From IMG/VR virus record IMGVR_UViG_3300005573_000022, positions 1 to 41,054 of that record: a DNA stretch of 41,054 bases; one strand, given 5' to 3'. Positions 4,825 to 39,921 of this stretch are shown here, piece by piece. The position numbers and the translations under genes were made by a program. The notes below the pieces were generated by a model, which saw only the letters and a program-made list of their open reading frames with translations, was not told where the DNA came from and searched no databases. This DNA is from a virus. Within the stretch, counting starts at the first letter, position 1. Each line of letters begins with the position of its first letter.

Positions 4825-4939
4825 TTTTCCCTCCTTTCATTCTAATAGGTTGTGGAGTTCCACATTGAGAACAAATCCACCTTTTTCCATCTCTAAACTG
4901 AACGGTATGAACTCTACAATTTACACAAACAAAATCCAT
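4820..4939 (-). CDS. 39-aa zinc-ribbon micro-protein
   Basis: Own translation: MDFVCVNCRVHTVQFRDGKRWICSQCGTPQPIRMKGGKNV, with CxxC...CxxC. It overlaps the start of the next ORF. The SD is weak. Confidence 0.35.
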
Positions 4940-10268: not shown

Positions 10269-10874
10269 TTACATATAGTTATGGTCAAACTTCAAAAACA
10301 ACCCGTAGAATTTATACACACTCGTTGCCTGAGCGGTAATTGCGATTTCAATTATTATTTTTTGGTCTGAAGTAGTGGCAAAAGCAGGTGTCCCTAAAGT
10401 TATTGTAGAAACATAAGGATTAGTTTGTGTTGCAGTTGCTAAAGAACCGCTTAAAGTTCCGCCAAAATCTGCTACTGATACTGCAGTGTTATTAGCATAA
10501 GTTACTGCCTTAACTGCTACAGAATGAGTAGTTAATGCTGCAGTTCCAATAGAGTATACTACATCAAAAGATGTTAACTTTAACCCTTTATCAGAAGTTG
10601 TTCGCATTAAATTAGTAATATCAGCGGCAATATAAGTAGTATCAGCAGCAGCAGTTTTATCAAGAGAATAATTTCCTGCGGCATTTCTGGTTATTGTCCA
10701 AGTGCCACCAGAAGCAATTACATCATTAACCCCTAAAAATATTTGACCATCAGTTTTAGCAACTTGGTTTTTTAACTCGCCAGATTGACTAATAACTTCT
10801 ACTTCAGAACCTTTAGCACCTACTGCATAACCATTTGACTTTGTAGATAAAGCATTAAAATGTGTATATCCCAT
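10269..10874 (-). CDS. Head-associated protein (decoration / auxiliary capsid candidate), 201 aa
   Basis: Immediately downstream of the capsid gene after a hairpin. GAGGAGG SD. Ala/Thr/Gly-rich and looks beta-rich. Confidence 0.35.
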   Translation of the reverse strand: MGYTHFNALSTKSNGYAVGAKGSEVEVISQSGELKNQVAKTDGQIFLGVNDVIASGGTWTITRNAAGNYSLDKTAAADTTYIAADITNLMRTTSDKGLKLTSFDVVYSIGTAALTTHSVAVKAVTYANNTAVSVADFGGTLSGSLATATQTNPYVSTITLGTPAFATTSDQKIIIEIAITAQATSVYKFYGLFLKFDHNYM

Positions 10875-10900
10875 TTTAACCTCCTCACTTTTTTAAAGCA

Positions 10901-10924
10901 GGAGGGGCAAATAAATGCCCCTCC
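10901..10924 (-). terminator. GC-rich stem-loop just after the major capsid gene (partial terminator / RNA stabiliser candidate)
   Basis: ggaggggca-aataaa-tgcccctcc gives a 9-bp perfect stem. On the minus strand it is followed by only a short TTT, so termination is probably leaky. Confidence 0.45.
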
Positions 10925-10934
10925 CAATTCGGTT

Positions 10935-11855
10935 TTACGATACTGAGTGTCCGTATACCCATCTCCAATCTGACCACCCAAAACTAAATCTGCAATATAC
11001 TGCAAATTTAGCAATAAGGGTGTCAAAAGACTTATCTTGGAAGAATTCTAAAGGTATACGGTCAAACCACTGCAGGAACATTTTAGCCATTGCTGAATCA
11101 ATCATAAACCAGTTGTTAGCATCAGTGAGATAATCCCAAACTGCTAACTTGTATTTCCCAAAATGGAAGTTAGCATTATTCTCTGCAGTGTCAACTTTAC
11201 CTTTAGAAGAAATTATCTCCCAAGCAGTCTCTTCCAAATTTCTGGGAACCAGGAGTAAATCTGGTTGCACTGCAATCAAATTGTCACGGTCATCTTTAAA
11301 CTGAGTCATTAAAATTCTCGTTGCCTCTACAGAAGTCGCTGATAAAGAACTTGACCCGACATTAGATTGCAGTGTAGAAGTTGCTGGAGACGGATGTGAG
11401 CTATTACACAAAGAAACTCCTTCAGTGTTGTTTAAAATAGTCACACCTTCAATCACAATCTTCCCACCACCTGAGAAAGCGGTATTAAACACATTAGCAG
11501 CAAGTTTTTCCATTGTTCTATTTGCCGCTAAAGCCAATCCTCTGGGTTTACGGGATATGACATTGTATAAATCATCATCAAAGAGTTTTCTCTCAACCTT
11601 AAAACCCTTCGCAAATTCTGCGTGGGTATAGGTCACATCATATCCCTGATAAACTTCATCGTAAGCGATAGTTCCAGTAAACACTGTTAAATCACCGAAA
11701 GCACCAACGGAACTATCTTTTTCGTATGAAGTTCCCGAGGATTGAACATTAAAAATCAATGGCCGCATCTCAGGGAGTTGGTTATATTGTTCTGTGAAGA
11801 TTTTCCTTAAACCTGGCTCCAATAAATCACCAAAACTCTCTGAAATTGCTGGCAT
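10935..11855 (-). CDS. Major capsid protein (HK97-fold type), 306 aa
   Basis: Typical size and position (after the scaffold). N-terminal region 'LRKIFTEQYNQLPEMRPLIFNVQSSGTSYEKDSSVGAFGDLTVFTGTIAYDEV..GYDVTYTHAEFAKGFKVERKLFDDDLY' resembles the gpT/E-type capsid families as I remember them. Confidence 0.7.
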   Translation of the reverse strand: MPAISESFGDLLEPGLRKIFTEQYNQLPEMRPLIFNVQSSGTSYEKDSSVGAFGDLTVFTGTIAYDEVYQGYDVTYTHAEFAKGFKVERKLFDDDLYNVISRKPRGLALAANRTMEKLAANVFNTAFSGGGKIVIEGVTILNNTEGVSLCNSSHPSPATSTLQSNVGSSSLSATSVEATRILMTQFKDDRDNLIAVQPDLLLVPRNLEETAWEIISSKGKVDTAENNANFHFGKYKLAVWDYLTDANNWFMIDSAMAKMFLQWFDRIPLEFFQDKSFDTLIAKFAVYCRFSFGWSDWRWVYGHSVS

Positions 11856-21605: not shown

Positions 21606-22025
21606 ATGGAGATAAAACTTTCGGAAAAAGTGAAGATTACCAATCCGCAAGAAATTGCAAAAATTTTTCAACAAATTTTAAAATCAGAAAATCAAATTGA
21701 CCAAGAAAAAGAACATTTTTGGGTTGTAGGGTTAAATGCACGGGACATAATTAAGTATTTGGAATTGGTAAGTCTCGGAACTTTGAATAGTAATTTAGTT
21801 CATCCCAGAGAGGTTTTTAGGTTAGCGATTTTTAAAGGAGTGGCGCAGATTATAATTGGACACAATCACCCTTCAGGAGAACCCGAACCATCAGAAGACG
21901 ATTTAGAAATTACAGCAAGACTAAAAAAAGCGGGGAAAATTATCGGCATTGAGGTAGTTGACCATATTATTATTACAGATGATAACAACAATTATGTAAG
22001 TTTTAAAGATAAGGGGCTGATTTAA
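21606..22025 (+). CDS. radC: RadC-like JAB/MPN domain protein
   Basis: JAMM motif 'GHNHPSGEPEPSEDD' plus the upstream 'E' (PREVFR), at a size typical of the stand-alone RadC C-terminal domain. Confidence 0.75.
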   Translation: MEIKLSEKVKITNPQEIAKIFQQILKSENQIDQEKEHFWVVGLNARDIIKYLELVSLGTLNSNLVHPREVFRLAIFKGVAQIIIGHNHPSGEPEPSEDDLEITARLKKAGKIIGIEVVDHIIITDDNNNYVSFKDKGLI

Positions 22026-22908: not shown

Positions 22909-22928
22909 AAAATTAGGAGGTGAGAATT

Positions 22929-23261
22929 ATGTGGTATATTGAAAAAGAAGTTACCATAAGCGCTGGTCATCATTTAAATAACTATGAAGGACCTTGTGCG
23001 AATAGACACGGCCATAATTGGAAAATTACAGTATATTGCAGAGGTGAGAAACTAAACTCATTGGGCATATTAGTTGATTTTAGAGATATTAAAAAAGCAG
23101 TTAGTTTTTTTGACCATAAATATTTGAATGATTTATTTCCTGAAGACGAAAATCCTACCGCAGAAAATCTTGCTAGAAGAATTTGCGAAAGCATACCTTA
23201 TTGCTATAAAGTAAAAGTAATAGAACAAGAAGGTAGTATTTGCGAATATGTTAAAGATTAA
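22929..23261 (+). CDS. queD: 6-carboxy-5,6,7,8-tetrahydropterin synthase
   Basis: 'ISAGHHL...CANRHGHNWKI' is the Cys/His zinc-catalytic signature of QueD. The ATG lies 8 nt after AGGAGG. Confidence 0.85.
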   Translation: MWYIEKEVTISAGHHLNNYEGPCANRHGHNWKITVYCRGEKLNSLGILVDFRDIKKAVSFFDHKYLNDLFPEDENPTAENLARRICESIPYCYKVKVIEQEGSICEYVKD

Positions 23262-23829
23262 TGAAATATTTTACAGCATACAAGGTGAAGGTTACTATAC
23301 TGGAATGCCCGCGATTTTTGTAAGACTTGCTGGTTGTAATCTCTCTTGCCCGTTTTGCGATACCGATTTTAGGGTTAATAGAGTAATGTGTGAAGATGAA
23401 ATAATAAAAGACATCAAGACATATAAAAACAAAAATGTAATACTAACTGGAGGTGAGCCTCTAATACAAAATCTTGACAAACTAATTAAGAAGTTAAAAG
23501 CTAATGGGTTTAATATTCATTTGGAGACAAACGGAACTATCGATACAAAGTTACCTTTTGACTGGATTACGGTTTCTCCAAAAAGCATGATTAATATCAA
23601 AAAAGCTAACGAATTTAAAATAATAGTTAAAGCATCGGACAAATTATCAAAAATTAAAAAATTAGTTCTTAAGTTAAAAAAAATTACTCCTTTAATTTAT
23701 TTGCAGCCTTGTTGGGATAAAAATCCGGAAATTACAAGGAAAAATACGGAAGTATGTGTTAAATATGTAAAGGAGGTGAAAGATTGTCGTCTAAGCCTGC
23801 AAACTCACAAGTTAATCGGTATAAAGTAA
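23248..23829 (+). CDS. queE: 7-carboxy-7-deazaguanine synthase (radical SAM)
   Basis: 'IFYSIQGEGYYTGMPAIFVRLAGCNLSCPFCDT' is the QueE N-terminal and cluster-binding motif. Confidence 0.85.
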   Translation: MLKINEIFYSIQGEGYYTGMPAIFVRLAGCNLSCPFCDTDFRVNRVMCEDEIIKDIKTYKNKNVILTGGEPLIQNLDKLIKKLKANGFNIHLETNGTIDTKLPFDWITVSPKSMINIKKANEFKIIVKASDKLSKIKKLVLKLKKITPLIYLQPCWDKNPEITRKNTEVCVKYVKEVKDCRLSLQTHKLIGIK

Positions 23830-24191
23830 GTTGGGAAGAATACGATAAAGATATTAGAATATTAGCTAATTTAATTAAAAAAGGAGGTGATGATAAATGT
23901 AGGGTTATTTATACACTTTCAAGAGGAGGATTGGTCATTGCTTGCCATTTAAGTCACTTGCTTAATATTAAAAACATTGTTGTTGATATTACTCCGCTTA
24001 TGCCGTATCCTATTTTAGTAGTAGATGATGTATCGGACACAGGAAAGACATTAAAAGAAAAGGTATTGCTTTGGAGAAGCCCGCATATAACAACTATTGC
24101 TACTTTATACCGAAAAGATGGAACTATGGTAGAACCAAAGTATACAGTTAAAACAATAAATAAATGGATAGTTTTCCCGTGGGAGGAATAA
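23784..24191 (+). CDS. gpt: Xanthine-guanine phosphoribosyltransferase-like protein (Gpt family)
   Basis: TTG start 7 nt after AGGAGG. 'LSRGGLVIACHL', PRPP loop 'ILVVDDVSDTGKTL' and C-terminal 'KWIVFPWEE' run parallel to E. coli Gpt (VSRGGLVPGALL / FIVIDDLVDTGGTA / TWIEQPWD) as I recall it. Confidence 0.75.
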   Translation: MSSKPANSQVNRYKVSWEEYDKDIRILANLIKKGGDDKCRVIYTLSRGGLVIACHLSHLLNIKNIVVDITPLMPYPILVVDDVSDTGKTLKEKVLLWRSPHITTIATLYRKDGTMVEPKYTVKTINKWIVFPWEE

Positions 24192-24209
24192 GATAAGAAA
24201 GGAGGAAAA

Positions 24210-24425
24210 ATGAATAACAAAAAACGAATAACTGGAACTCAAAAACTTTTAAACGCACTTAAAGAAGAAAAAACACTTGAAGAACTTGCGCAAGAAACTG
24301 GATTAAAAATATCTACAATAAGAATACAGCTGGGGTATCATTTGCCTAAAAAAGGCTATATTATTAAAAAAGGCCAAAAGAATGGCCAATTATCTTATAC
24401 TTTAGAGCAAGAAACCTCAAAATAA
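24210..24425 (+). CDS. Small winged-helix/HTH protein, 71 aa
   Basis: 'KTLEELAQETGLKISTIRIQLGYHL' is an HTH-like segment. GGAGGA SD. Confidence 0.5.
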   Translation: MNNKKRITGTQKLLNALKEEKTLEELAQETGLKISTIRIQLGYHLPKKGYIIKKGQKNGQLSYTLEQETSK

Positions 24426-24455: not shown

Positions 24456-25016
24456 ATGAATCATAAACTTATTGAGGAGAGTATTCGCGCAATAATTCAA
24501 GCGATTGGAGAAAATCCGGAAAGAGAAGGGTTAAAAGAAACTCCTTTACGTATTGCTAAAGCCTATGAATTCCTGTTTTCTGGATATAAGCAATCACCTA
24601 AAGATATTCTTTCTAAAACATTTACGCAAGCTTATGATGAAATGGTAGTTTTAAAAAACATAGAAATATATTCTATGTGCGAACACCATTTATTACCTTT
24701 TTTTGGTAAATGTCACATTGCTTATATACCCAATGGTAGAGTTGTAGGAGTTAGCAAATTAGCAAGACTAATGGAATGTTACGCCAGAAGATTGCAAATA
24801 CAAGAACGCCTTTGCAATCAAATAGTAGATGCAATAGAAGAATACTTAAAACCGCTTGGTAGCGCTTGTATCATTGAAGCACAGCATTTTTGTATGACAA
24901 GCAGAGGTATTCAAAAACAAAATAGTGTAATGGTTACTTCTGCTTTGAGAGGAGTTTTTAGAGAAAAAATTGAAGCACGAGAAGAATTGATGAGATTGAT
25001 AAAAAATGGAGATTAA
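24456..25016 (+). CDS. folE: GTP cyclohydrolase I
   Basis: '[14 protein letters not shown]', '[18 protein letters not shown]', '[10 protein letters not shown]...RLQIQERL' are canonical FolE blocks. Confidence 0.9.
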
Positions 25017-25885
25017 TGAAATTATATTTAGCAGACTGGGAAGCAGCAAATTCTTTATTAACTAACACAAAAGAAATTGTTAGAAATATTCTTACCACTT
25101 ATTACTACAATAAAGATATACAATTTTATAAACAAATGAAACTTGAAAATAAAAATGTATTTTTAGACAGCGGAGCATTTAGTGCTTGGTCGCAAAAAAA
25201 AGAAATCAATATTTTTCAATACGCGCAATTTCTGCATAAAGTAAAAGAATATGTTGAAGTATATGCAACCCTCGATAGCATTGGAGATTATAAAAAAACA
25301 ATGGAAAATACAAAATATTTAGAAAGCGAAGGGCTGTCACCTTTACCTTGTTTTCATTACGGAGAACCAATAACGATTCTTGATAAATATGTAGATAAAT
25401 ATGAATATATAGCGTTAGGGGGAATGGTTCCGATTAGCACACCGCAACTAATGTTCTGGCTCGATGATATTTTTCATCGACATCCGAAAGTAAAATTTCA
25501 CGGTTTTGGATTAACTACACTTTTTTTGATTAAACGATATCCTTGGTATAGTGTAGATAGTTCCTCCTGGTGTAGCGGTGGTAAATTTGAGAGAGTAATT
25601 ATAAAAGATAGAACATTTGATTTTGGACGCGACCAATCTTCTCCAGATGCTTGGACAAAACAATCGTCTTATATTCAAGAATACTATAAAGAAATTTTAC
25701 AAAAAGAATATAATATTACACCAGAAGAATTATTCAACTCATATAAGCGCAGAAATGATGTAAATGTTTTATCTTTTTTACAAATAGAAAAAGAATTAAC
25801 TTTAAACCCACCAAAAATATTTCAAAAACCACAAATGGAATTTTTTGATATTTCGTTAATAGGAAAAAGAGAGGAGGAAAAATGA
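25016..25885 (+). CDS. dpdA: DpdA-type DNA (7-deazaguanine) transglycosylase, TGT superfamily
   Basis: 'VFLDSGAFSAW', 'IALGGMVP', 'FHGFGLT', 'SVDSSSW' match the phage DpdA landmarks I recall. It is embedded between folE and queC with TAATG/ATGA overlaps. Confidence 0.75.
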   Translation: MKLYLADWEAANSLLTNTKEIVRNILTTYYYNKDIQFYKQMKLENKNVFLDSGAFSAWSQKKEINIFQYAQFLHKVKEYVEVYATLDSIGDYKKTMENTKYLESEGLSPLPCFHYGEPITILDKYVDKYEYIALGGMVPISTPQLMFWLDDIFHRHPKVKFHGFGLTTLFLIKRYPWYSVDSSSWCSGGKFERVIIKDRTFDFGRDQSSPDAWTKQSSYIQEYYKEILQKEYNITPEELFNSYKRRNDVNVLSFLQIEKELTLNPPKIFQKPQMEFFDISLIGKREEEK

Positions 25886-26541
25886 AAGCAGTTTGTATTT
25901 TATCCGGAGGCATAGATAGCACAACGCTATTATATCGAATGCTCAAAGAAGGTTTCGAGGTATTACCGATTTCATTTTTCTATGGACAAAAACATTCAAA
26001 AGAATTGAAAATGGCAAGTTTAACCTGCGCTAAGTTAAACCTAAAACATAAAATAATTGATTTATCTTCAATGTCCGATTTATTAAAAAGTGCTTTGACT
26101 ACTAAAGATATTGCGGTTCCTGAAGGACATTACCAAGCAGAAAATATGAAACAAACTGTAGTCCCGAATAGGAATATGATATTTTTAAGTATTTCTGCAG
26201 GAATAGCGTATTCTACAGGAGCAAAAATAATAGGTATTGGCGTGCATACAGGTGACCACGCTATATATCCCGATTGTAGAGAAAGTTTTATTCAAGATTT
26301 TGAAAGACTGGTTAATAAAGGAAATGAATGGTTTGATGAATTACGTATTTACGCACCTTATATTAATAAAAATAAAATCGATATAGTAAAAGATGGTCTA
26401 AGTATAGGAGTAGATTATTCTCTTACCTGGACTTGTTATAAAGGCGGAGAAAAAGCTTGTGGGAAATGTGGTTCTTGTATTGAAAGATTAGAAGCGTTTA
26501 ATAAAAATAACGCTCAAGACCCTTTAGAGTATGAAAGTTGA
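25882..26541 (+). CDS. queC: 7-cyano-7-deazaguanine (preQ0) synthase
   Basis: PP-loop 'AVCILSGGIDSTT' and the C-terminal zinc site 'CYKGGEKACGKCGSCIER'. Confidence 0.9.
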   Translation: MKAVCILSGGIDSTTLLYRMLKEGFEVLPISFFYGQKHSKELKMASLTCAKLNLKHKIIDLSSMSDLLKSALTTKDIAVPEGHYQAENMKQTVVPNRNMIFLSISAGIAYSTGAKIIGIGVHTGDHAIYPDCRESFIQDFERLVNKGNEWFDELRIYAPYINKNKIDIVKDGLSIGVDYSLTWTCYKGGEKACGKCGSCIERLEAFNKNNAQDPLEYES

Positions 26542-29812: not shown

Positions 29813-29974
29813 ATGGAAAAAATAACATTTAGGGCATCGTTGTATAAAATGCAAAGAGATTATGAAGATGAATGTAAAATTACTTTTCAAGTGCCAGCAT
29901 CAGAATTAGAAGAAGTTGTAAAAGTTCCTGCGCAAAAAGAATTATTAATTGAAATTTTAGTGAAAGAAAAATGA
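29813..29974 (+). CDS. 53-aa micro-protein
   Basis: Own translation: MEKITFRASLYKMQRDYEDECKITFQVPASELEEVVKVPAQKELLIEILVKEK. AAGGAGG upstream, and ATGA overlap with the methyltransferase gene. Confidence 0.45.
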   Translation: MEKITFRASLYKMQRDYEDECKITFQVPASELEEVVKVPAQKELLIEILVKEK

Positions 29975-30657
29975 TTACTCCTTATTACGAAGAAGAAGGA
30001 ATAAAGATTTATTTAGGTGATTGTCTTGAGGTTATGAAAGAAATACCAGATAAGTCAATAGACCTTGTATTGACTGACCCGCCTTGGGCATTAGGTAAAA
30101 AAGAATATGATACAGAAAAAGAAATGTTTACTTTTAAGAAAGCAATGCCCGAAATAAATAGAGTATTAAAAGATAATAAACATTTCTTATGTGATACGAG
30201 TTATACACAATTATTTAAAACGAATGAAATTATAAGCCCATTTTTAATTTATCGCCAACCTATAATTCTTTATTGTAATAATCAAATTGGACATCATAGT
30301 TTTGTGGGGTGGAATCACTTTAGAATGATTTTATGGTATTGTAAAACTAAACCCAATAAGCCTGTAAAACGATATAGAGATGTAATAGAGTTTCCAATGA
30401 AATCTACAAAAAAAGAAGGATGGAATTTTCCTAATCCCAAAGATGTTTATACTTATAAAAAGTTAATAGAAATGTTTAGTAATAAAAATGACTTAATTCT
30501 TGACCCCTTTCTTGGCTCTGGCACTACTTTAGTTGCCTGTAAAGAATTAGGCAGGCAAGGTATAGGTATAGAAATTAACAAAAAATATTGTGATATAGCA
30601 GTTAGGCTACTTAAAAATACTATACGACCTTTATTTTATGAAAGCAAAACTTGTTAA
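29971..30657 (+). CDS. Beta-class DNA amino-methyltransferase (N6-adenine or N4-cytosine)
   Basis: Catalytic 'DLVLTDPPW' precedes the AdoMet motif 'LILDPFLGSGTT', which is the beta-class order. Confidence 0.8.
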   Translation: MITPYYEEEGIKIYLGDCLEVMKEIPDKSIDLVLTDPPWALGKKEYDTEKEMFTFKKAMPEINRVLKDNKHFLCDTSYTQLFKTNEIISPFLIYRQPIILYCNNQIGHHSFVGWNHFRMILWYCKTKPNKPVKRYRDVIEFPMKSTKKEGWNFPNPKDVYTYKKLIEMFSNKNDLILDPFLGSGTTLVACKELGRQGIGIEINKKYCDIAVRLLKNTIRPLFYESKTC

Positions 30658-33266: not shown

Positions 33267-33737
33267 ATGAACATTAACAAAATCAAAAAAGAAATTTTAA
33301 AAGGTTATAATAGTATTCCTTTAGGAGTTGAAAAAATAAAATGGGATACAGGAATTTATGTTTATAAAAATGAAAAATACAGATTTAAAGAATATGCTTT
33401 TTATTTTCCGTATTATTTAGACAAAGAAGACTTACGGGAAGTTGGAAAAAATATGAAAAGATTAGAAATTTATCTTACTTATGATTTTGAAGGATTTTTT
33501 GACCCTATAGTTTTTCACGGTGAAGTATATCCTATTACAAAATTATTATCAAAATTAGAACAATTTCGGATTGAAGTGCCTATGAAAAGAGATGAAAAAA
33601 ATGAAAACGAAAGAGTAATAAATCCCAATCATAAAATTATTTTTGTAGAAAGAGTGCCTTTAGAAATAGGGAAAGAATCGGTATGTAATATTGGAATGTG
33701 CGAAATTTATACAAGATTTTTAGTTATTATAGATTAA
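33267..33737 (+). CDS. Hypothetical protein, 156 aa (last plus-strand gene)
   Basis: AAGGAGG SD. Its stop overlaps the stop of the convergent ATP-grasp gene. Confidence 0.5.
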   Translation: MNINKIKKEILKGYNSIPLGVEKIKWDTGIYVYKNEKYRFKEYAFYFPYYLDKEDLREVGKNMKRLEIYLTYDFEGFFDPIVFHGEVYPITKLLSKLEQFRIEVPMKRDEKNENERVINPNHKIIFVERVPLEIGKESVCNIGMCEIYTRFLVIID

Positions 33738-34981
33738 AAATTTATTCCTACCTTTTTACCTTTCTCAATAATCTCTTTTATTTTAATTAGTCCGTTGATA
33801 GTATCAGTTTCTAATCCATATCCAGATATTTTTTCGGAATACTTCTCTAAATTATCAACAACTTCTTCTATTGAATTCCCGCCATAAACTACAACTGCTA
33901 CCGTAGGGTTTCCTTTAACCGCAAAATATTCTTTGTTAGAAGAACCCGCAACTGATATAAATCTAATATATTCTCTATCTTTTTTATCGACTATCAATTT
34001 GACCCAGTTTTTCTCAGCGTGAGAACAATGGATAGGAACTGCACCTACATATTTATAAGGAATATCTAACTTAACAGATTGTTTTAAACCAATTTTATAT
34101 ATTACTTCTGGCCAATTTTTTATAATAACTGGATATAAATGACCTAAAGGATTAGGAAGCCTTGCACAAAAATCTAAAAAATAATGTTCTTTTTCTGATA
34201 AAACTTTTTCTTCAGTAGATAAAGCGCCTCTATAATCCATTTCTTTTAAGACTGGTCTTAATTTTTCTAAAGTCTCTTTTAAAGGATAAGGTAAATCTTC
34301 AAATTTTTCACAGACTTTTCCTAAGTAGCACGCCTTTGAATATTCATAACCGTATATAATGGGAGAAACATAATCTTCTCCCCAGAAGAAAGTATCAACT
34401 CCAGGCTCTACATCGGTATCTATATAATCTTCAACGATAAAATCATAATCTTCTTTAAAAGGACCTAACATCGAAGCAATTTCGTCAAACAATAATTCTG
34501 AAGATTTATAATCTTTAGCGTGAAATGAGGAAATATCGTGTCTAAATATATCAAATTTTATATATTTATTAGGATTTTCTTTAATATATTCTTTTAAAGC
34601 GGATAAACCAGTAATTTTAACCGTCTCTTGAACAGGAAGATTTATTTCACTAAGCATTTGTTTTAAAGACCATCTCTCATTCTCAAGCATTTCTCCAATA
34701 CCAGAACCAAAAATAGATTTATCAGGATATTGTTTTTTTAAAAAGACAATTAAATCGTTAAAATGAACATCGAAATTTACTATACAATCAGCTTCTTCGA
34801 TATAGTCAAAAAAATATAAAATCTTTTCTAAATGTTCAAAATCTTTACCAATGGCATAATCTTGGAATTTAGGAAAAGCGGTTTGCCAAGGAGTGTAATA
34901 ATAGACTTTATTTTTACCGTTATCACTTAAAGCGTTTGCTTCTTCAACGAATAATCCTAAATCTAAAACTAAAAATTTCAT
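33734..34981 (-). CDS. ATP-grasp fold ligase, PurD-like layout (415 aa)
   Basis: By-eye colinearity with PurD: 'MKFLVLDLG', 'IFGSGIGEMLENERWSLKQMLSEINLPV', 'KYIKFD', 'FIVEDYID', 'HYFLDFCARLPNP' (PurD: IFGP..LEGSKAF.K.F....IP / VIKAD / IEEFL.G / VIEFNCRFGDPE). Confidence 0.6.
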   Translation of the reverse strand: MKFLVLDLGLFVEEANALSDNGKNKVYYYTPWQTAFPKFQDYAIGKDFEHLEKILYFFDYIEEADCIVNFDVHFNDLIVFLKKQYPDKSIFGSGIGEMLENERWSLKQMLSEINLPVQETVKITGLSALKEYIKENPNKYIKFDIFRHDISSFHAKDYKSSELLFDEIASMLGPFKEDYDFIVEDYIDTDVEPGVDTFFWGEDYVSPIIYGYEYSKACYLGKVCEKFEDLPYPLKETLEKLRPVLKEMDYRGALSTEEKVLSEKEHYFLDFCARLPNPLGHLYPVIIKNWPEVIYKIGLKQSVKLDIPYKYVGAVPIHCSHAEKNWVKLIVDKKDREYIRFISVAGSSNKEYFAVKGNPTVAVVVYGGNSIEEVVDNLEKYSEKISGYGLETDTINGLIKIKEIIEKGKKVGINF

Positions 34982-35085
34982 TCGTCTTCCTCGTATCCTT
35001 CTTCTTTATCCTTTTCATTTTCTTCAGTTAAAAGGAAAAAAAGAAAAACCATAAAAAGAAATATTGAAGCGGTTAAAGAACTCAT
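34978..35085 (-). CDS. 35-aa micro-protein: hydrophobic helix plus hyper-acidic C-terminal tail
   Basis: Own translation: MSSLTASIFLFMVFLFFLLTEENEKDKEEGYEEDE. ATGA overlaps at both ends link it to the 637-aa gene and to the ATP-grasp gene. Confidence 0.45.
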   Translation of the reverse strand: MSSLTASIFLFMVFLFFLLTEENEKDKEEGYEEDE

Positions 35086-36995
35086 TCTCTTTTTTGTAAA
35101 TATCTAATAACTTGTTCTTCCGTTGGTCTTATTGTAGTTAATTGTTGCCAAGGATATCTTAATAATCCCGCCGTTCTTAATAAAGTTTTATAAGTTGCTG
35201 GTAAAGTTCCTAAAACCATTATACCGCCACCTAAAGGACCAGCTAAACTTGTGCCAAATATCATAGATGCTAACATATTTAAAGCACGACCTCTAAATAT
35301 ATGTGGGTCTGTAAGTCTCCAAGATTGTGCTGCTAAAAATTTTCTAATATCATTAAATAATTCCGGGTCAGTATTTTCTAATCTCTGTCTTAAAATAGAA
35401 CCAGGCTCTATAATATTTCTTAATCTTTTTACTAATTCATCAGCCCCTACTGCTTCCCAATAACCTTTTCTTGTAGGATTAGTCACAATATTTTTCCTAA
35501 TTAAATTAGAATCTTTCATAAACTCGTGATAATTTCTTTTGGCTTGTTGATATTGTTGTGCTAATCTTGGACTTTTTGCAGAAATTGCTTGCGTAATAAG
35601 ATTTCCTAAAGAATTATAAATATCCCATAGCATATTCTCATATCTTGATATATCTTCACCACGATGACTTTCTAATTTATTAGCGATAGATTCCATCGTA
35701 AGTTTAGCTTGATTAATATTTTTAATATTTACTAATCTATCAAAAGTTCTCATTAAATATTTTGTTATACTTGTAGTAGCTTCTTCATCTAAATCAATCT
35801 TAAAAAGTTTTGATAATTCTCTTTGTGATAAAGGTCTTTCTGCCGCTTGTGCTACTTTTCTTAACTGTGCTATTTCTACTGGAGATAATAATCCTACTGC
35901 TTCTAAGTTTGTTTGTAAATTTTCAGCTAAAGGTCTAACATCAATAGGTTCTTGTCTAAATTGGTCTAAAATTTTAGAAACTCTTTCTCCTAATTCAGTC
36001 TTTGTTTTTTGTAAAGTTTCTAATATATTAGGAATTATTTTTCTTGCAGTTTGTGGATTTCTATTTATAGGAGTATCAACATTTTCTATTCCAAATTCAT
36101 AAGTAGTATCAATATCTTCTTTTGGCATTCTTGAAGCAAATTGCGCAATCATACTAAAAATATTTTTAGGATATTTTTCTAAATTTTTTATAAAAGACCT
36201 TGTATAAGTTTCTATTTTTCCCATTGGCCTTTCTCCAACGTAAGGAGCACGTTCTGCGGTTGCTAACTCTGATTTAGTTAAAGGTCTTTCGGGATATAAT
36301 CCTCCTAAGCCTGCTCCAATTAAAGTTTGTGAAATAGTTTCTTCTTTAGGAGGAGTTTCTCCAAAAAGTTTTGGAATTTGCGCCGTCGTTCCTGCTACTG
36401 CCCCCATTCCTGCTGCAGTCATCGGTCTTGCTAACCATTGAGTAGGTGCTAATCTACCAATTCTTGCACCAGCGTGCCATAAAGGATAAGTAGCCCCAGA
36501 AAGTAAAGCAGATGGTAAAGTTTGTATAGGATGCCCTTCTAAAGTTCCTCTAAGTTGAGTATAGCCTCCGATTCCTAACATTCCTGATATAATAGGTCTT
36601 AAACCTAAAGCTCTTAATGCACCAATTCCTCCAGCAATAAAAGGTAAATCTCTTCCTGCTTGTGTAAGACCTACGGTTAAATATTCAGGTAAAGTTTTAG
36701 GTTTTTCTGCCTCCGCTTCTCTTAAAATTCTTTCTGCATATTGTTCTCTTGTTTCTCCAGGTCGTCTAACTGCAGGACCAGCCATAGTCCAGTATAAACC
36801 TTTTCTTAACCAACGAGGATAAAGTTCTGCTAAAGATTCTGCTCCCATTATTGCTAAACGCCAAGGGTCTAATGGTTGTTCTACAGTTTCATTCCAAATA
36901 TTATCTAAAGAACGCCTTTCACTTGTAATTTTAGGAGTTAAACCTATTGTTTCGTTATATATATCATCTAATGACCTTTGTGGCATTTTTACCAC
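35082..36995 (-). CDS. Internal virion / DNA-ejection-type protein with glycine-zipper membrane segments (637 aa)
   Basis: Hydrophobic Gly/Ala-rich stretches (FIAGGIGALRALGL..ISGMLGIGGY; AAGMGAVAGTTA). N-terminal duplicated decapeptide RSLDDIYNET / RSLDNIWNET. Positional analogy to podovirus core proteins. Confidence 0.4.
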   Translation of the reverse strand: MVKMPQRSLDDIYNETIGLTPKITSERRSLDNIWNETVEQPLDPWRLAIMGAESLAELYPRWLRKGLYWTMAGPAVRRPGETREQYAERILREAEAEKPKTLPEYLTVGLTQAGRDLPFIAGGIGALRALGLRPIISGMLGIGGYTQLRGTLEGHPIQTLPSALLSGATYPLWHAGARIGRLAPTQWLARPMTAAGMGAVAGTTAQIPKLFGETPPKEETISQTLIGAGLGGLYPERPLTKSELATAERAPYVGERPMGKIETYTRSFIKNLEKYPKNIFSMIAQFASRMPKEDIDTTYEFGIENVDTPINRNPQTARKIIPNILETLQKTKTELGERVSKILDQFRQEPIDVRPLAENLQTNLEAVGLLSPVEIAQLRKVAQAAERPLSQRELSKLFKIDLDEEATTSITKYLMRTFDRLVNIKNINQAKLTMESIANKLESHRGEDISRYENMLWDIYNSLGNLITQAISAKSPRLAQQYQQAKRNYHEFMKDSNLIRKNIVTNPTRKGYWEAVGADELVKRLRNIIEPGSILRQRLENTDPELFNDIRKFLAAQSWRLTDPHIFRGRALNMLASMIFGTSLAGPLGGGIMVLGTLPATYKTLLRTAGLLRYPWQQLTTIRPTEEQVIRYLQKRE

Positions 36996-37681
36996 CCTTT
37001 CTTTTGTAGATAAGCTATAATTTCGTCATCAGACCAACCTTCTGCTTTCGCTTTTCTTACAAATTCTTGCAATTGAGGATTAATTTGTTGTGCAGGTATA
37101 ACGCCAGAACCTGCAGTTGGATATGGAACTCCAGTCGCTCTTGAAATTTCTGATAAAATTTCTTCTCTGGAAGGATGTGTAAATATACCCATTAATCTTT
37201 GAAATAAGGGAAATCTACTTTCTATTTGTCTTTCTGCTAATTTTTCTACAGGTATTGCTTTTCCTCCTTTACCAACTCCTCCATATAATCTTTGATAAGT
37301 TTCTACTGCTTTAGCCCAAGGGTCTATAGTTTCTTTAGGAGTTATAGGTTCTATTGTAGTAGAAACCCTTCCTTGTTCATCAACTTTATAAGAAACTTTA
37401 TATTGTCCACTTTGAATAATATCTTTCAATTGTTCTAAAGATGTAGTAGGTTTTGTCCATTCACCTAAACCTATTTGTTGTAAAAATCCAGCGGGAGGTT
37501 GATATCCAGCACTAATCATAGAACCCATCATTCCCATCTGAAGTTGTCTTAAATATTGTTCCTGTTGTTGTCTTCTTGCCAAAGTATAATTTAAAAAATT
37601 AGTTAAAACATCATTTAAAGGAGAAAATCTTCCTCCGGTTTGATAACCGGTTAAAAATCCTCTACTAATTTGTCCATCCAT
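36989..37681 (-). CDS. Internal virion protein candidate, 230 aa
   Basis: ORF overlapping both large neighbours. Gln/Gly-rich N-terminus. Confidence 0.35.
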   Translation of the reverse strand: MDGQISRGFLTGYQTGGRFSPLNDVLTNFLNYTLARRQQQEQYLRQLQMGMMGSMISAGYQPPAGFLQQIGLGEWTKPTTSLEQLKDIIQSGQYKVSYKVDEQGRVSTTIEPITPKETIDPWAKAVETYQRLYGGVGKGGKAIPVEKLAERQIESRFPLFQRLMGIFTHPSREEILSEISRATGVPYPTAGSGVIPAQQINPQLQEFVRKAKAEGWSDDEIIAYLQKKGW

Positions 37682-37693
37682 ATTTGTCCTCCT

Positions 37694-39526
37694 TTAAAAT
37701 AATAATCTACCACCAGCAACAGGACTTAATGCTCCAGTTCCTGCTAACATAAGTCCTAAACCAGCAGTTCCAAAAAGTTGTCTTAAAGATTGAACATTAG
37801 CAACATCAACTCCATATTTCATTGCCGCTTGTTCTACAGAAAGACCAGTTAAACCTACCAATTCTTGTAAAGTATTTTGGTCTATTCCTGTTGCTTGTTG
37901 TAATGCCATTAAACGCGTATTAATTTCTTCAGTTCTTCTTTGAACTCCAAATTGCGCAAGAAAATCTTCTTTATCTTTTTGAATTTGTTCTTCCCAATCT
38001 CTTAATGCTTGTAAATGTTCAGAAGAATAAGGAGAGCCAAATTGAGTATAATAATCAGTTATCCGTTTTCTTCCTTCTTCTGCCGCTTCATCCATTTGCC
38101 TTAAAACTGATTGTATATAAGGGTCAGAAGTGACATCAGGATAAACTTGACCAAATGGAGAAGTTAAAATTCTTTGAAGTTCTTTTTGAGCAGTTTGACC
38201 AATCGGAGTTAAATATCCTTGTCTTACAGTTTGTAAAGTTTGTGATAATTCTTCCGGCATTTTAAATTGTGGAGTAGGAAGTAAAGCACCCATTCCACTA
38301 ATTGCTAATCCAGGTAGTGCTCCTCTTAAACCTGATAAAATTCCCGCTCCTGCTGTAGTTGCCCCTGTAGACATAGCACCTAAACCAGTCGCCACTGGAG
38401 TTGCGGTTAAACCTCCTGCCCCTCCAGTAATTGTATAAGGAACTCCACCGAAAGTGACTTGTGTCCCTAATCCGGAAGCACCTGCTAAACCTCTCGCTCC
38501 CGCAGTAGTTCCTAAAAGACCTCCTAAAAATTCTCCTCGCGGAGTTATTCTAAAAATATTACTAATACCTGAACCTATTCTTTGACCTAAAGTCGCGCCT
38601 TGACCTGCAGCGCCAAAACCACTTATAAATCTACTTCCTGCATAAGGTAACGCCGCTAATGCTATTTCTGAAGGTTGAGCTTCCCCTCTTTGCACTGCTC
38701 TTGCAGTAGTTCCTACTGCAGTTGCTAAAGCAGGTAATTGCCAAGGTCCCGGTATTGCCGATGCAATAGTAGCTAAAGGTCTGATAATTTGTCTTGCTCT
38801 TTTCCCGCCTTTAACTTTTTTTGCTTCACTATCAGTTATTACATATTCAGGAATTAAAGTAGGTGATAAAACATAAACCTCATCTGGTAAAATTGATAAA
38901 TCAACTCCATTTTCATCTTCCCAGACTTCAAAATGGTGATTATAGTGAATAATATAAGGAAATGGTAATTTATTTAGTTCTGTTTTAGGAATTCTCATAG
39001 GATACAACAAAAATTCATTATCTTGCGCTATCTTACATAAAGTATCTAAAGATATTTTGTTAGTTCTTCCATTAAGACTTCCTACTAACTGGTCAAAAGC
39101 CAAAATTCCGCAATTGTTTTTCATTTCATTATACCTCCTTTTTGAAATTTTAAATTGATTTCTTTTATTTATCCAAAGCCCTAAATCTATATCTTTTTCT
39201 TTCATTTCAAGTTTTCTTACTAAATCACTTATCTTACAATTATTATTTTTAACTAACAAATCTATATATACCAAATCCCCATCAGTATAATTTTTAGGCA
39301 ATTCCCAAGTTTGATAAAGTTTTAAAATTTCTTCAATATCATTTTCAGTAATTTTATAATAAGTTAAATATCCATCAATAGAACCATTATTAGAATAAAC
39401 TATAACTTGCTTTTTATCCATTAAATTCTTCAAATAACTATAAAACTCATCTAAAGGATATGGCTCTATATTTTTACAATGTTTTATAGTAAAAAGTATT
39501 AAATCGTTAATAGAAAACTCTTTCAT
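37694..39526 (-). CDS. Multidomain virion protein: acyltransferase-like N-domain, C39-like cysteine-peptidase domain, Gly/Ala-rich membrane-active region, helical C-terminus (610 aa)
   Basis: 'NNCGILAFDQLVG' (Cys site) and 'FPYIIHYNHHFEVWED...LPDE' (His/Asp) fit the C39 papain-like pattern. The first 130 aa or so loosely parallel HlyC-type acyltransferases. Long GxxxG/A-rich tract between about aa 250 and 410. Confidence 0.45.
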   Translation of the reverse strand: MKEFSINDLILFTIKHCKNIEPYPLDEFYSYLKNLMDKKQVIVYSNNGSIDGYLTYYKITENDIEEILKLYQTWELPKNYTDGDLVYIDLLVKNNNCKISDLVRKLEMKEKDIDLGLWINKRNQFKISKRRYNEMKNNCGILAFDQLVGSLNGRTNKISLDTLCKIAQDNEFLLYPMRIPKTELNKLPFPYIIHYNHHFEVWEDENGVDLSILPDEVYVLSPTLIPEYVITDSEAKKVKGGKRARQIIRPLATIASAIPGPWQLPALATAVGTTARAVQRGEAQPSEIALAALPYAGSRFISGFGAAGQGATLGQRIGSGISNIFRITPRGEFLGGLLGTTAGARGLAGASGLGTQVTFGGVPYTITGGAGGLTATPVATGLGAMSTGATTAGAGILSGLRGALPGLAISGMGALLPTPQFKMPEELSQTLQTVRQGYLTPIGQTAQKELQRILTSPFGQVYPDVTSDPYIQSVLRQMDEAAEEGRKRITDYYTQFGSPYSSEHLQALRDWEEQIQKDKEDFLAQFGVQRRTEEINTRLMALQQATGIDQNTLQELVGLTGLSVEQAAMKYGVDVANVQSLRQLFGTAGLGLMLAGTGALSPVAGGRLLF

Positions 39527-39921
39527 ATTCCTAATAAAACTAAAGCAATTATCATAACTAAATTAAACAAAACAAATATCGTCAATCTTGTAGCCCAATT
39601 TGCGGATTTATAAGGCAAAAACTTAAGATAAAATCTTCCTAATGCTGAACCTTTATCGGTTTTATCTGGCATACCATAGCCAATAGAAACTACCCCACAA
39701 AGAAAAGGAATAACTAAAAATAGCCAAATATTTATAAAAGATAAACTAATCCCTACAACTAAAGGAACACCTAATCTTCTAAATAATTTCTTCCCTGCAC
39801 CACCTATTGCCCATAAAAAAGCACAAATAATACCTGGTATAACCGCTAACCAACTAATTAAAGGCCAAGTAGAACTTCCATACAAAAACCCACATAAAAT
39901 CTCTTCTTTATTTAATTTCAT
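39523..39921 (-). CDS. Four-TM integral membrane protein, 132 aa
   Basis: Four hydrophobic segments. ATGA overlap with the 610-aa gene. Confidence 0.5.
   Translation of the reverse strand: MKLNKEEILCGFLYGSSTWPLISWLAVIPGIICAFLWAIGGAGKKLFRRLGVPLVVGISLSFINIWLFLVIPFLCGVVSIGYGMPDKTDKGSALGRFYLKFLPYKSANWATRLTIFVLFNLVMIIALVLLGI

Follow-up and report, generated by a model that had tools for sequence, protein, structure and literature searches.

A loop-less 6-oxopurine-type phosphoribosyltransferase encoded among the 7-deazaguanine DNA-modification genes of a phage, with a proposed role in guanine salvage

Modification of phage DNA with 7-deazaguanines is a major anti-restriction and anti-CRISPR strategy, and its pathway, made up of FolE, QueD, QueE, QueC, and DpdA, is regarded as solved. 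The virus record IMGVR_UViG_3300005573_000022 of IMG/VR, analyzed here over its positions 1 to 41,054 (the window), carries the full pathway to preQ0 and a DpdA1-like transglycosylase in one operon, as in the published phage 7-deazaguanine systems. The same operon encodes a 135-residue phosphoribosyltransferase (PRT) at 23784–24191. Judged by sequence and gene context, this protein represents a widespread, loop-less viral subfamily that appears dedicated to 7-deazaguanine DNA-modification modules, and we tentatively propose that it acts as a guanine sink and recycler.

The published phage schemes (FolE-QueD-QueE-QueC with DpdA1–4; Hutinet 2019, Cui 2023) contain no PRT, as had been stated in an earlier note on this DNA, and the terms “phosphoribosyl”, “PRT”, and “salvage” do not occur in the text of either paper. 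The paper on the Queuovirinae and phage iggy describes only “hypothetical genes inserted in between”. Phages of these published systems, namely immuto, phiST, CP220, and the Nipunavirus relatives of iggy, carry PRT homologues or fusions that are absent from the schemes. Cui et al. proposed that all phage 7-deazaguanine modifications are post-replicative, noted an ADG nucleoside in the cytoplasm of CP220-infected cells, and reported that attempts to validate DpdA3 in E. coli had failed. No paper joining DpdA, a phosphoribosyltransferase, and phage was found in the searchable literature, subscription-only papers lying outside that search, and the link of the PRT to phage dpdA clusters appears to be undescribed.

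A biochemical precedent is found in actinomycetes, in gene clusters with FolE, QueD, and QueE homologues. TubE is a demonstrated phosphoribosyltransferase that uses 7-carboxy-7-deazaguanine (CDG) and phosphoribosyl pyrophosphate (PRPP), while ToyH is its proposed preQ0 equivalent. Both are PF00156 proteins clustered with homologues of FolE, QueD, and QueE (and QueC), and the phage PRT is likewise encoded with FolE, QueD, and QueE. At ~194 residues, however, TubE and ToyH are longer than the 135-residue phage protein, with which they are compared here by description and gene context. The tubercidin and toyocamycin clusters of TubE and ToyH have no DpdA and contain GMP-reductase, PurA/PurB-like, and Nudix or HAD tailoring genes. 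The window, on the other hand, has DpdA, and the GMP-reductase, PurA/PurB-like, Nudix, and HAD tailoring genes of those clusters were not found in it. The earlier note had put forward two ideas for the phage enzyme, (a) salvage of guanine and (b) phosphoribosylation of a 7-deazapurine base, and had considered neither to be described; TubE and ToyH provide a precedent for the chemistry of (b), and what appears to be new is the link between a PRT and phage dpdA.

The operon has the order queD-queE-PRT-orf71-folE-dpdA-queC, with all genes on the plus strand and with strong profile support for FolE, QueD, QueE, QueC, and DpdA. Its features are the following.

22920–23261, plus strand: queD, 6-carboxytetrahydropterin synthase (Pfam PTPS, 8e-27; TIGR03367 QueD, 1.2e-24)
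23248–23829, plus strand: queE (TIGR04508, 1.1e-36; phrog_2076, 8.4e-41)
23771–23776, plus strand: AGGAGG, Shine-Dalgarno sequence of the PRT gene inside queE (read from the sequence)
23784–24191, plus strand: short-form (loop II-less) 6-oxopurine-type PRT, 135 residues (PF00156, 37.2 bits; phrog_8995, 1.5e-15; AlphaFold2 pLDDT 90.4; Foldseek)
24210–24425, plus strand: 71-residue open reading frame (ORF) between the PRT gene and folE, with weak winged-helix/HTH similarity (sub-threshold profile matches)
24456–25016, plus strand: folE, GTP cyclohydrolase I, which starts preQ0 synthesis (PF01227, 6.2e-76; NF006825, 1.4e-77)
25016–25885, plus strand: dpdA, DpdA1-like DNA guanine transglycosylase (phrog_887, 4.4e-55; NCBIfam DpdA, 1.5e-6, below cutoff)
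25882–26541, plus strand: queC, 7-cyano-7-deazaguanine synthase (PF06508, 5.9e-68; TIGR00364, 2.1e-60)

The profile searches thus bear out the neighbors named in the earlier note and its view that the PRT is wired into a preQ0/DpdA operon. Its statement that the gene sits between queE and folE needs one correction, as the 71-residue ORF separates the PRT gene from folE. The start of queD is a GTG as listed here, and public gene calls take an ATG three codons downstream. By tblastn, the window DpdA shares 33–36% identity over ~90% of its length with the DpdA proteins of CAjan, the 9g group/Nonagvirus, PaMx25-like phages, and Rosebush. The QueC lacks a Gat domain and no queF was found in the window, so the base inserted in the DNA is predicted to be preQ0 (dPreQ0).

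The PRT gene starts with a TTG at 23784, which follows the AGGAGG after a 7-nucleotide spacer, and ends with a stop codon at 24189–24191. The Shine-Dalgarno sequence and the start codon both lie inside the 3′ end of queE, which the PRT gene overlaps by 46 nucleotides, and the frame offers no alternative in-frame start before residue ~72. The ORF, start, ribosome-binding site, and overlap given in the earlier note are exact in the sequence. Gene callers have placed an identical 135-residue PRT in the same operon on three independent public contigs (ENA, Logan). Conservation of the ORF is far beyond chance, since 145 homologues are present in databases and 12 residues are invariant across 40 sequences. 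A spurious ORF or a different start is ruled out by the lack of another in-frame start, the identical public gene calls, and the more than 100 homologues, while an antisense ORF of 88 residues (23954–24220) is unsupported.

The protein is well supported as a type I phosphoribosyltransferase of the 6-oxopurine clade. It matches Pfam PF00156 (Pribosyltran) with an E-value of 2.3e-9 and 37.2 bits (gathering score 26.3), and PHROG 8995, “phosphoribosyl transferase”, with 1.5e-15. The closest solved structures by sequence are P. horikoshii 1VDM (5.4e-13) and the Sulfolobus hypoxanthine-guanine-xanthine PRT (HGXPRT) GpT-2 (1e-9), with the E. coli xanthine-guanine PRT (XGPRT) at 0.017. An AlphaFold2 model built from a 40-sequence alignment (pLDDT 90.4, pTM 0.84) has a Rossmann-like core and a hood. 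Foldseek returned 329 PDB matches at E ≤ 0.001, and purine PRTs make up all of the 50 best listed. The top matches are 6-oxopurine PRTs, namely Sso HGXPRT, 1VDM, the H. pylori xanthine-guanine-hypoxanthine PRT, and the E. coli and Yersinia XGPRTs, with TM scores of ~0.7–0.8. The top sequence and structure matches exclude a non-purine PRT of the ComF, PyrR, orotate PRT, or uracil PRT type. The earlier description of the protein as a purine phosphoribosyltransferase, as opposed to a ComF-like or regulator type, is therefore confirmed by the profile search and by the predicted structure.

The ligand residues were compared with those of E. coli XGPRT, whose reference sequence was checked and is identical to PDB 1A95. 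The residue roles given in the following are those of the XGPRT and HGPRT literature. In the alignment, the pyrophosphate (PPi) loop R47-G48-G49 (S46-R47-G48-G49 in full) corresponds to R37-G38-G39 of XGPRT, the ribose/Mg pair D81-D82 to D88-D89, and D85, the Asp of “DTG” and partner of purine N7, to D92. K111 corresponds to K115, which contacts O6, W128 to W134, which stacks on the ring, and P132-W133 to P138-W139 in the C-terminal hood. The PRPP-binding motif is ILVVDDVSDTGKT at residues 77–89. The three motif matches quoted in the earlier note turn out to be true alignment columns against the verified XGPRT sequence. The invariant residues listed across the 40 sequences are R47, G48, G49, D81, D82, D85, G87, K111, P118, and E134, and the columns of the XGPRT base contacts D92, K115, and W134 (D85, K111, and W128 in the PRT) vary little or not at all. 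In the mechanism of HGPRT and XGPRT, the “DTG” Asp is characteristic of 6-oxopurine substrates that bear N7. Outside loop II, the catalytic and ligand residues stay invariant across sequences with less than 35% identity, which suggests chemistry rather than binding alone.

The PRT departs from its relatives by a deletion. It lacks ~20–25 residues, comprising a β-hairpin with flexible loop II, the catalytic loop that shuts over the active site, and the flanking strands, which are found in the 1VDM-type, Thermococcus, and E. coli enzymes. The spacing from RGG to DD is 34 residues in the PRT versus 51–54 in 72 of 74 cellular relatives, and the protein appears on sequence grounds to be a naturally loop-less variant. 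Its closest structural relatives, Pyrococcus PH0095 (1VDM) and Sulfolobus GpT-2 (4Z1O, 4ZFN, 5BQO, 5BQP), match with Foldseek E-values of ~1e-13, TM scores of 0.78–0.81, and 27–36% identity. These archaeal 6-oxopurine PRTs share the RGG loop, the VDDVSDTGKT motif, the Lys, and the C-terminal KWIVFPWEE hood with the phage protein. Unlike them, the phage PRT lacks the ~20–25 residues between the α2/β2 region and the PRPP motif, has a short N-terminal extension, and has its gene in a DNA-modification operon, not in a housekeeping context. E. coli XGPRT (Gpt; 1A95) shares the fold and the aligned PPi, PRPP, N7, O6, and stacking residues, at 28% identity, but its SSY-containing flexible loop is absent from the phage PRT. 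The Gpt equivalog is ruled out by this missing loop and by the score against the NCBIfam xanthine PRT model NF006613, which the PRT matches in two stretches (3.3e-13) with 49.5 bits against a curated cutoff of 138. The earlier claim that the product tracks E. coli Gpt from end to end does not hold, as loop II and its flanks are gone and the archaeal structures are closer; the comparison to Gpt is valid at the level of the clade. In the B. subtilis hypoxanthine PRT (HPRT), complete deletion of loop II abolishes pppGpp binding, which suggests, speculatively and by analogy, that the loss of loop II may have made the phage PRT insensitive to (p)ppGpp.

The association with 7-deazaguanine genes was surveyed in IMG/VR, where a scan gave 116 viral relatives of the PRT. 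Eighty viral loci, 69 short-form and 11 long-form, were examined with 10-kb flanks and annotated by tblastn and iterative hidden Markov models (HMMs). Linkage was defined as que and/or DpdA/tRNA-guanine transglycosylase (TGT)-like genes within 10 kb on the same strand. By this definition, 54 of the 69 short-form loci are linked (42 with both, six with que genes only, and six with DpdA only), que genes being present in 48. Linkage was found in one of the 11 long-form viral loci and in none of 80 cellular loci, which come from archaea and the candidate phyla radiation (CPR) and are nearly all long-form. The enrichment beside que and dpdA genes that the earlier note had suggested looking for is thus strongly borne out. 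It persists after dereplication: with the PRTs clustered at 70% identity, 24 of 35 clusters show it, and at 50% identity 14 of 16 do. The order seen most often is FolE-PRT-DpdA, in which the genes overlap or abut; FolE immediately precedes the PRT in 17 loci, and DpdA immediately follows it in 15. FolE2 takes the place of FolE in at least one locus.

Three transglycosylase types accompany the PRT: a window/immuto-like type, a type that we call DpdA_B, and a third candidate recognized from a DSGG motif only. DpdA_B is a divergent group of ~390 residues in the TGT family (PF01702, 8.6e-7; GDSGGFQ motif), for example at 10396–11577 of survey locus L052, and it lies directly downstream of the PRT in 34 viral loci (L052 and 33 others). 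With tblastn and a single HMM, DpdA was found in 12 loci; DpdA_B escapes HMMs that start from the window DpdA and from immuto DpdA3. Its nearest isolate proteins are hypothetical proteins of jumbo phages (the PA5oct group and Xanthomonas and Sinorhizobium phages), and DpdA_B may be an unclassified DpdA subfamily. Other recurrent neighbors, such as HD phosphohydrolases, glycosyltransferase-like proteins, and polymerases, follow lineage-specific synteny, and none of them is a cross-lineage partner.

Several loci of the survey deserve mention in their own right. An HD-domain metal-dependent phosphohydrolase (phrog_28876, 6e-13) adjoins the TGT-like gene in L052 (11587–12363), L044 (12666–13466), and L040 (11992–12714). 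DatZ is the HD dATPase of Z-genome phages, and by analogy the HD phosphohydrolase of the L052 lineage could be a dGTP-removing enzyme. In L022 (8256–10384), FolE2 (PF02649, 1.6e-78) and a DHH/DHHA1 phosphoesterase precede a short PRT, with no QueD, QueE, or QueC detected within 10 kb; the large ORFs of this viral contig are RNA-polymerase-like by eye only. Among the 80 cellular loci only two short-form PRTs occur, at L091 10001–10330 in a Saccharibacteria metagenome-assembled genome (MAG) and at L137 2544–2912 in a Giovannonibacteria MAG. Neither of these CPR bins has another window gene in common or que genes nearby, and the two PRTs may be prophage or mis-binned viral DNA. L091 is the best cellular match, but for want of a further shared gene it does not identify the host of the window phage.

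Isolated phages were searched by tblastn of the PRT against 50,697 phage records. Homologues are found in Flavobacterium phage immuto, in Cellulophaga phages phiST, phi13:1, and phi19:2, and in Campylobacter phages CP220, CP21, and CPt10. The immuto cluster has the layout queD-queE-..-PRT-folE-..-dpdA3 and includes a MazG-like NTP pyrophosphohydrolase and Tmk. Guanine replacement of ~100% has been reported for the immuto (fdPreQ1), phiST (dDG), and CP220 (dADG) groups (PMC10516641), and PRT homologues are present in all three of these groups, in which essentially all guanine is replaced. In the Escherichia phages of the CAjan and 9g types, the same search found no PRT homologue; DpdA1 systems thus do not require the PRT, which is an accessory to them. 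As a separate observation, downstream of the PRT of phiST (L087, 8989–13085) come, in this order, a gene with weak similarity to dNMP kinases, an unknown gene, and the gene for the large subunit of a ribonucleotide reductase (RNR). In Brevundimonas phages (L001 and L002, 3684–8498), RNR β, RNR α, a dNMP kinase, and FolE are followed by a long-form PRT. Taken together, the phiST and Brevundimonas neighbor sets would supply the enzymes required to take a base to the dNDP.

In several phages a PRT-like domain forms the N-terminal ~115 residues of a “GTP cyclohydrolase” of ~295–300 residues. Such PRT-FolE fusions are found in Pseudomonas phages NP1 and PaMx25 (Nipunavirus, Queuovirinae), Vibrio phage VpKK5, and Sphingomonas phage MMDA13; fusion ORFs lie at 4872–5795 of L090 (PaMx25, NC_041953.1), 2402–3295 of L172, 3917–4819 of L171, and 4953–5840 of L089. 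The annotated folE start of PaMx25 is too far downstream, as the upstream in-frame sequence holds PRGG, IDDLIDSGST, and WIVFPWEG, and gp38, a “hypothetical protein” that overlaps it, has been called in the wrong frame. As Rosetta-stone fusions, these proteins link the PRT domain in function to the pathway and, more narrowly, to its GTP-consuming FolE step.

Based on these observations, we propose that the PRT is a minimal 6-oxopurine PRT that acts as a guanine sink and recycler, accessory to the 7-deazaguanine DNA-modification module. This is the likeliest single reading, though a tentative one, and with it we infer the role, a guanine substrate, and catalysis without loop II. DpdA would exchange guanine in the phage DNA for preQ0 and release free guanine, which the PRT, together with PRPP, would turn into GMP along with other guanine from the pool. 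Host Gmk and Ndk would then return the GMP to GTP, the substrate of FolE, so that the displaced purine would be recycled into new preQ0. At the same time, the PRT would take away the guanine that otherwise vies with preQ0 for re-insertion at the DpdA-DNA intermediate, and this removal would pull the modification forward. The loss of loop II may slow the PRT and may, more speculatively, free it from the (p)ppGpp that shuts down host HPRT and XGPRT.

Guanine salvage is favored because the guanine-type pocket with its N7-partner Asp is kept across phages with different final bases. D85 is invariant although the associated phages end in preQ0, fdPreQ1, dDG, dADG, or G+, and guanine is one thing that all of them share. 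The usual gene order FolE-PRT-DpdA and the fusion to FolE also argue for this reading. For the window phage in particular, idea (a) is ranked above idea (b) because the window has a DpdA1-type transglycosylase and no recognizable kinase, reductase, dGTPase, or polymerase. With no such enzymes of its own, base-level exchange is the only self-sufficient route of this phage. Several points weigh against guanine salvage. Catalysis by the PRT could be poor or lost without loop II, and a phage enzyme brings no obvious benefit where, as is expected of most hosts, the cell already has a Gpt or Hpt. CAjan and 9g, which are DpdA1 phages, reach ~25% modification with no detectable PRT. Two kinase steps separate the PRT from FolE, and the fusion is therefore no classical fusion of consecutive steps. 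Also, the homologues of phiST and the Brevundimonas phages adjoin dNMP-kinase-like and RNR genes, a setting compatible both with salvage and with a nucleotide-level route.

The main alternative, unlikely but with a precedent, is that the PRT is a 7-deazapurine phosphoribosyltransferase like TubE or ToyH, which would convert CDG, preQ0, or a derivative with PRPP to the ribonucleotide and so open a pre-replicative route that would complement or replace DpdA exchange. For TubE, which is encoded beside FolE, QueD, and QueE homologues, CDG:PRPP transferase activity is proven, ToyH is its proposed preQ0 counterpart, and CDG is also a common intermediate of all the phage pathways. PRT homologues occur in all three groups that replace 100% of guanine (CP220/CP21, phiST, and immuto; levels from PMC10516641), and the reported failure to validate DpdA3 in E. 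coli points the same way. Genes that could take a base to the dNTP lie nearby in phiST and the Brevundimonas phages (RNR, dNMP kinase), in immuto (MazG-like, Tmk), and in the L052-type loci (HD phosphohydrolase). The window DpdA, however, is of the DpdA1 type, a class that acts on the free base and gives partial replacement, and no recognizable kinase, RNR, dGTP-removing enzyme, or polymerase is found in the window. The invariance of the N7-interacting D85 is unexpected for a C7-substituted substrate, and, unless all the phages share CDG as the substrate, the same conserved pocket would need to accommodate widely differing C7 substituents. The fusion partner is FolE, the first step of the pathway, rather than QueC or QueE, the last steps.

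In a broader form, the short-form PRT would be the enzyme for a nucleotide-level route, in which base and PRPP give the NMP, which passes through NDP and dNDP to the dNTP and is built into DNA by a polymerase. We consider this rather unlikely. If true, it would explain the 100% guanine replacement in CP220, phiST, and immuto; DpdA would be a proofreading or top-up enzyme, and host enzymes would complete the route in small DpdA1 phages.

It is improbable that the PRT is a non-catalytic or barely catalytic ligand-binding module that senses guanine, GMP, PRPP, or (p)ppGpp and regulates or scaffolds FolE and/or DpdA. The purine repressor PurR, with its non-catalytic PRT-fold domain, offers a resemblance, and the whole flexible loop II hairpin is gone. 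The PRT domain is fused to the FolE N-terminus in several phage genera, being even shorter there (~115 residues), and the free-standing PRT is translationally coupled between FolE and DpdA. On the other hand, every catalytic and ligand residue outside loop II is invariant, including the Mg/ribose DD pair and the catalytic Asp, and the PRT has no DNA- or RNA-binding feature. Least probable of all, and very doubtful, is a generic purine-salvage auxiliary metabolic gene for replication that sits in the que operon by inherited synteny only: 15 of the 69 short-form loci lack que or dpdA genes, long-form viral copies are rarely que-linked (one of 11), and some short-form copies lie elsewhere (beside a nicotinate PRT and an ORF that is NadE-like by motif, after an ORF that is DNA ligase-like by eye, or near structural genes), but the linkage persists across PRT clusters with less than 50% identity, three TGT/DpdA types, FolE or FolE2, and fusions, the cellular relatives are unlinked (0 of 80 loci), and several of the loci with no que genes end at a contig edge close to the PRT.

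In many lineages the PRT gene is coupled in an operon between those of FolE and DpdA; in the Queuovirinae it is fused to FolE, and it is present in every phage group with known full guanine replacement. This conserved tie to the pathway suggests that the accepted scheme lacks a step. Either of the two leading readings bears on the question of how the replacement of guanine becomes complete. A guanine sink would explain how a reversible base exchange goes to completion, while a 7-deazapurine PRT would mean that a pre-replicative route exists. As a naturally minimized, loop-less scaffold, the PRT also deserves attention in enzymology and in the preparation of 7-deazapurine nucleotides.

The remainder of the 41-kb window (32% GC) looks like a small siphovirus-type genome, with a portal protein, RecE/RecT, a DnaD-like replication organizer, and an N6/N4 methyltransferase. 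DNA polymerase, nucleotide kinase, ribonucleotide reductase, MazG, and HD dGTPase genes were not recognizable in the window, and no near-identical phage genome was found in the phage collection. The 71-residue ORF at 24210–24425, with its sub-threshold matches to WHD_MCM8 (0.006), HTH_40 (0.0075), and ORF80_fam (1.3e-4), is kept on the public contigs and is possibly an operon regulator. A JAB-domain protein resembling RadC (PF04002, 3.3e-39) is encoded at 21606–22025, ahead of the modification operon. The N6/N4 DNA methyltransferase at 29971–30657 (phrog_67, 1.4e-53; PF01555 on the public contigs) is a second DNA-modification function within the same early/replication gene block. On the minus strand, five consecutive large ORFs at 33734–39921 (415, 637, 230, 610, and 132 residues) have no PHROG match at E ≤ 0.001 and probably serve as tail or host-recognition genes in a lineage that has not yet been sampled.

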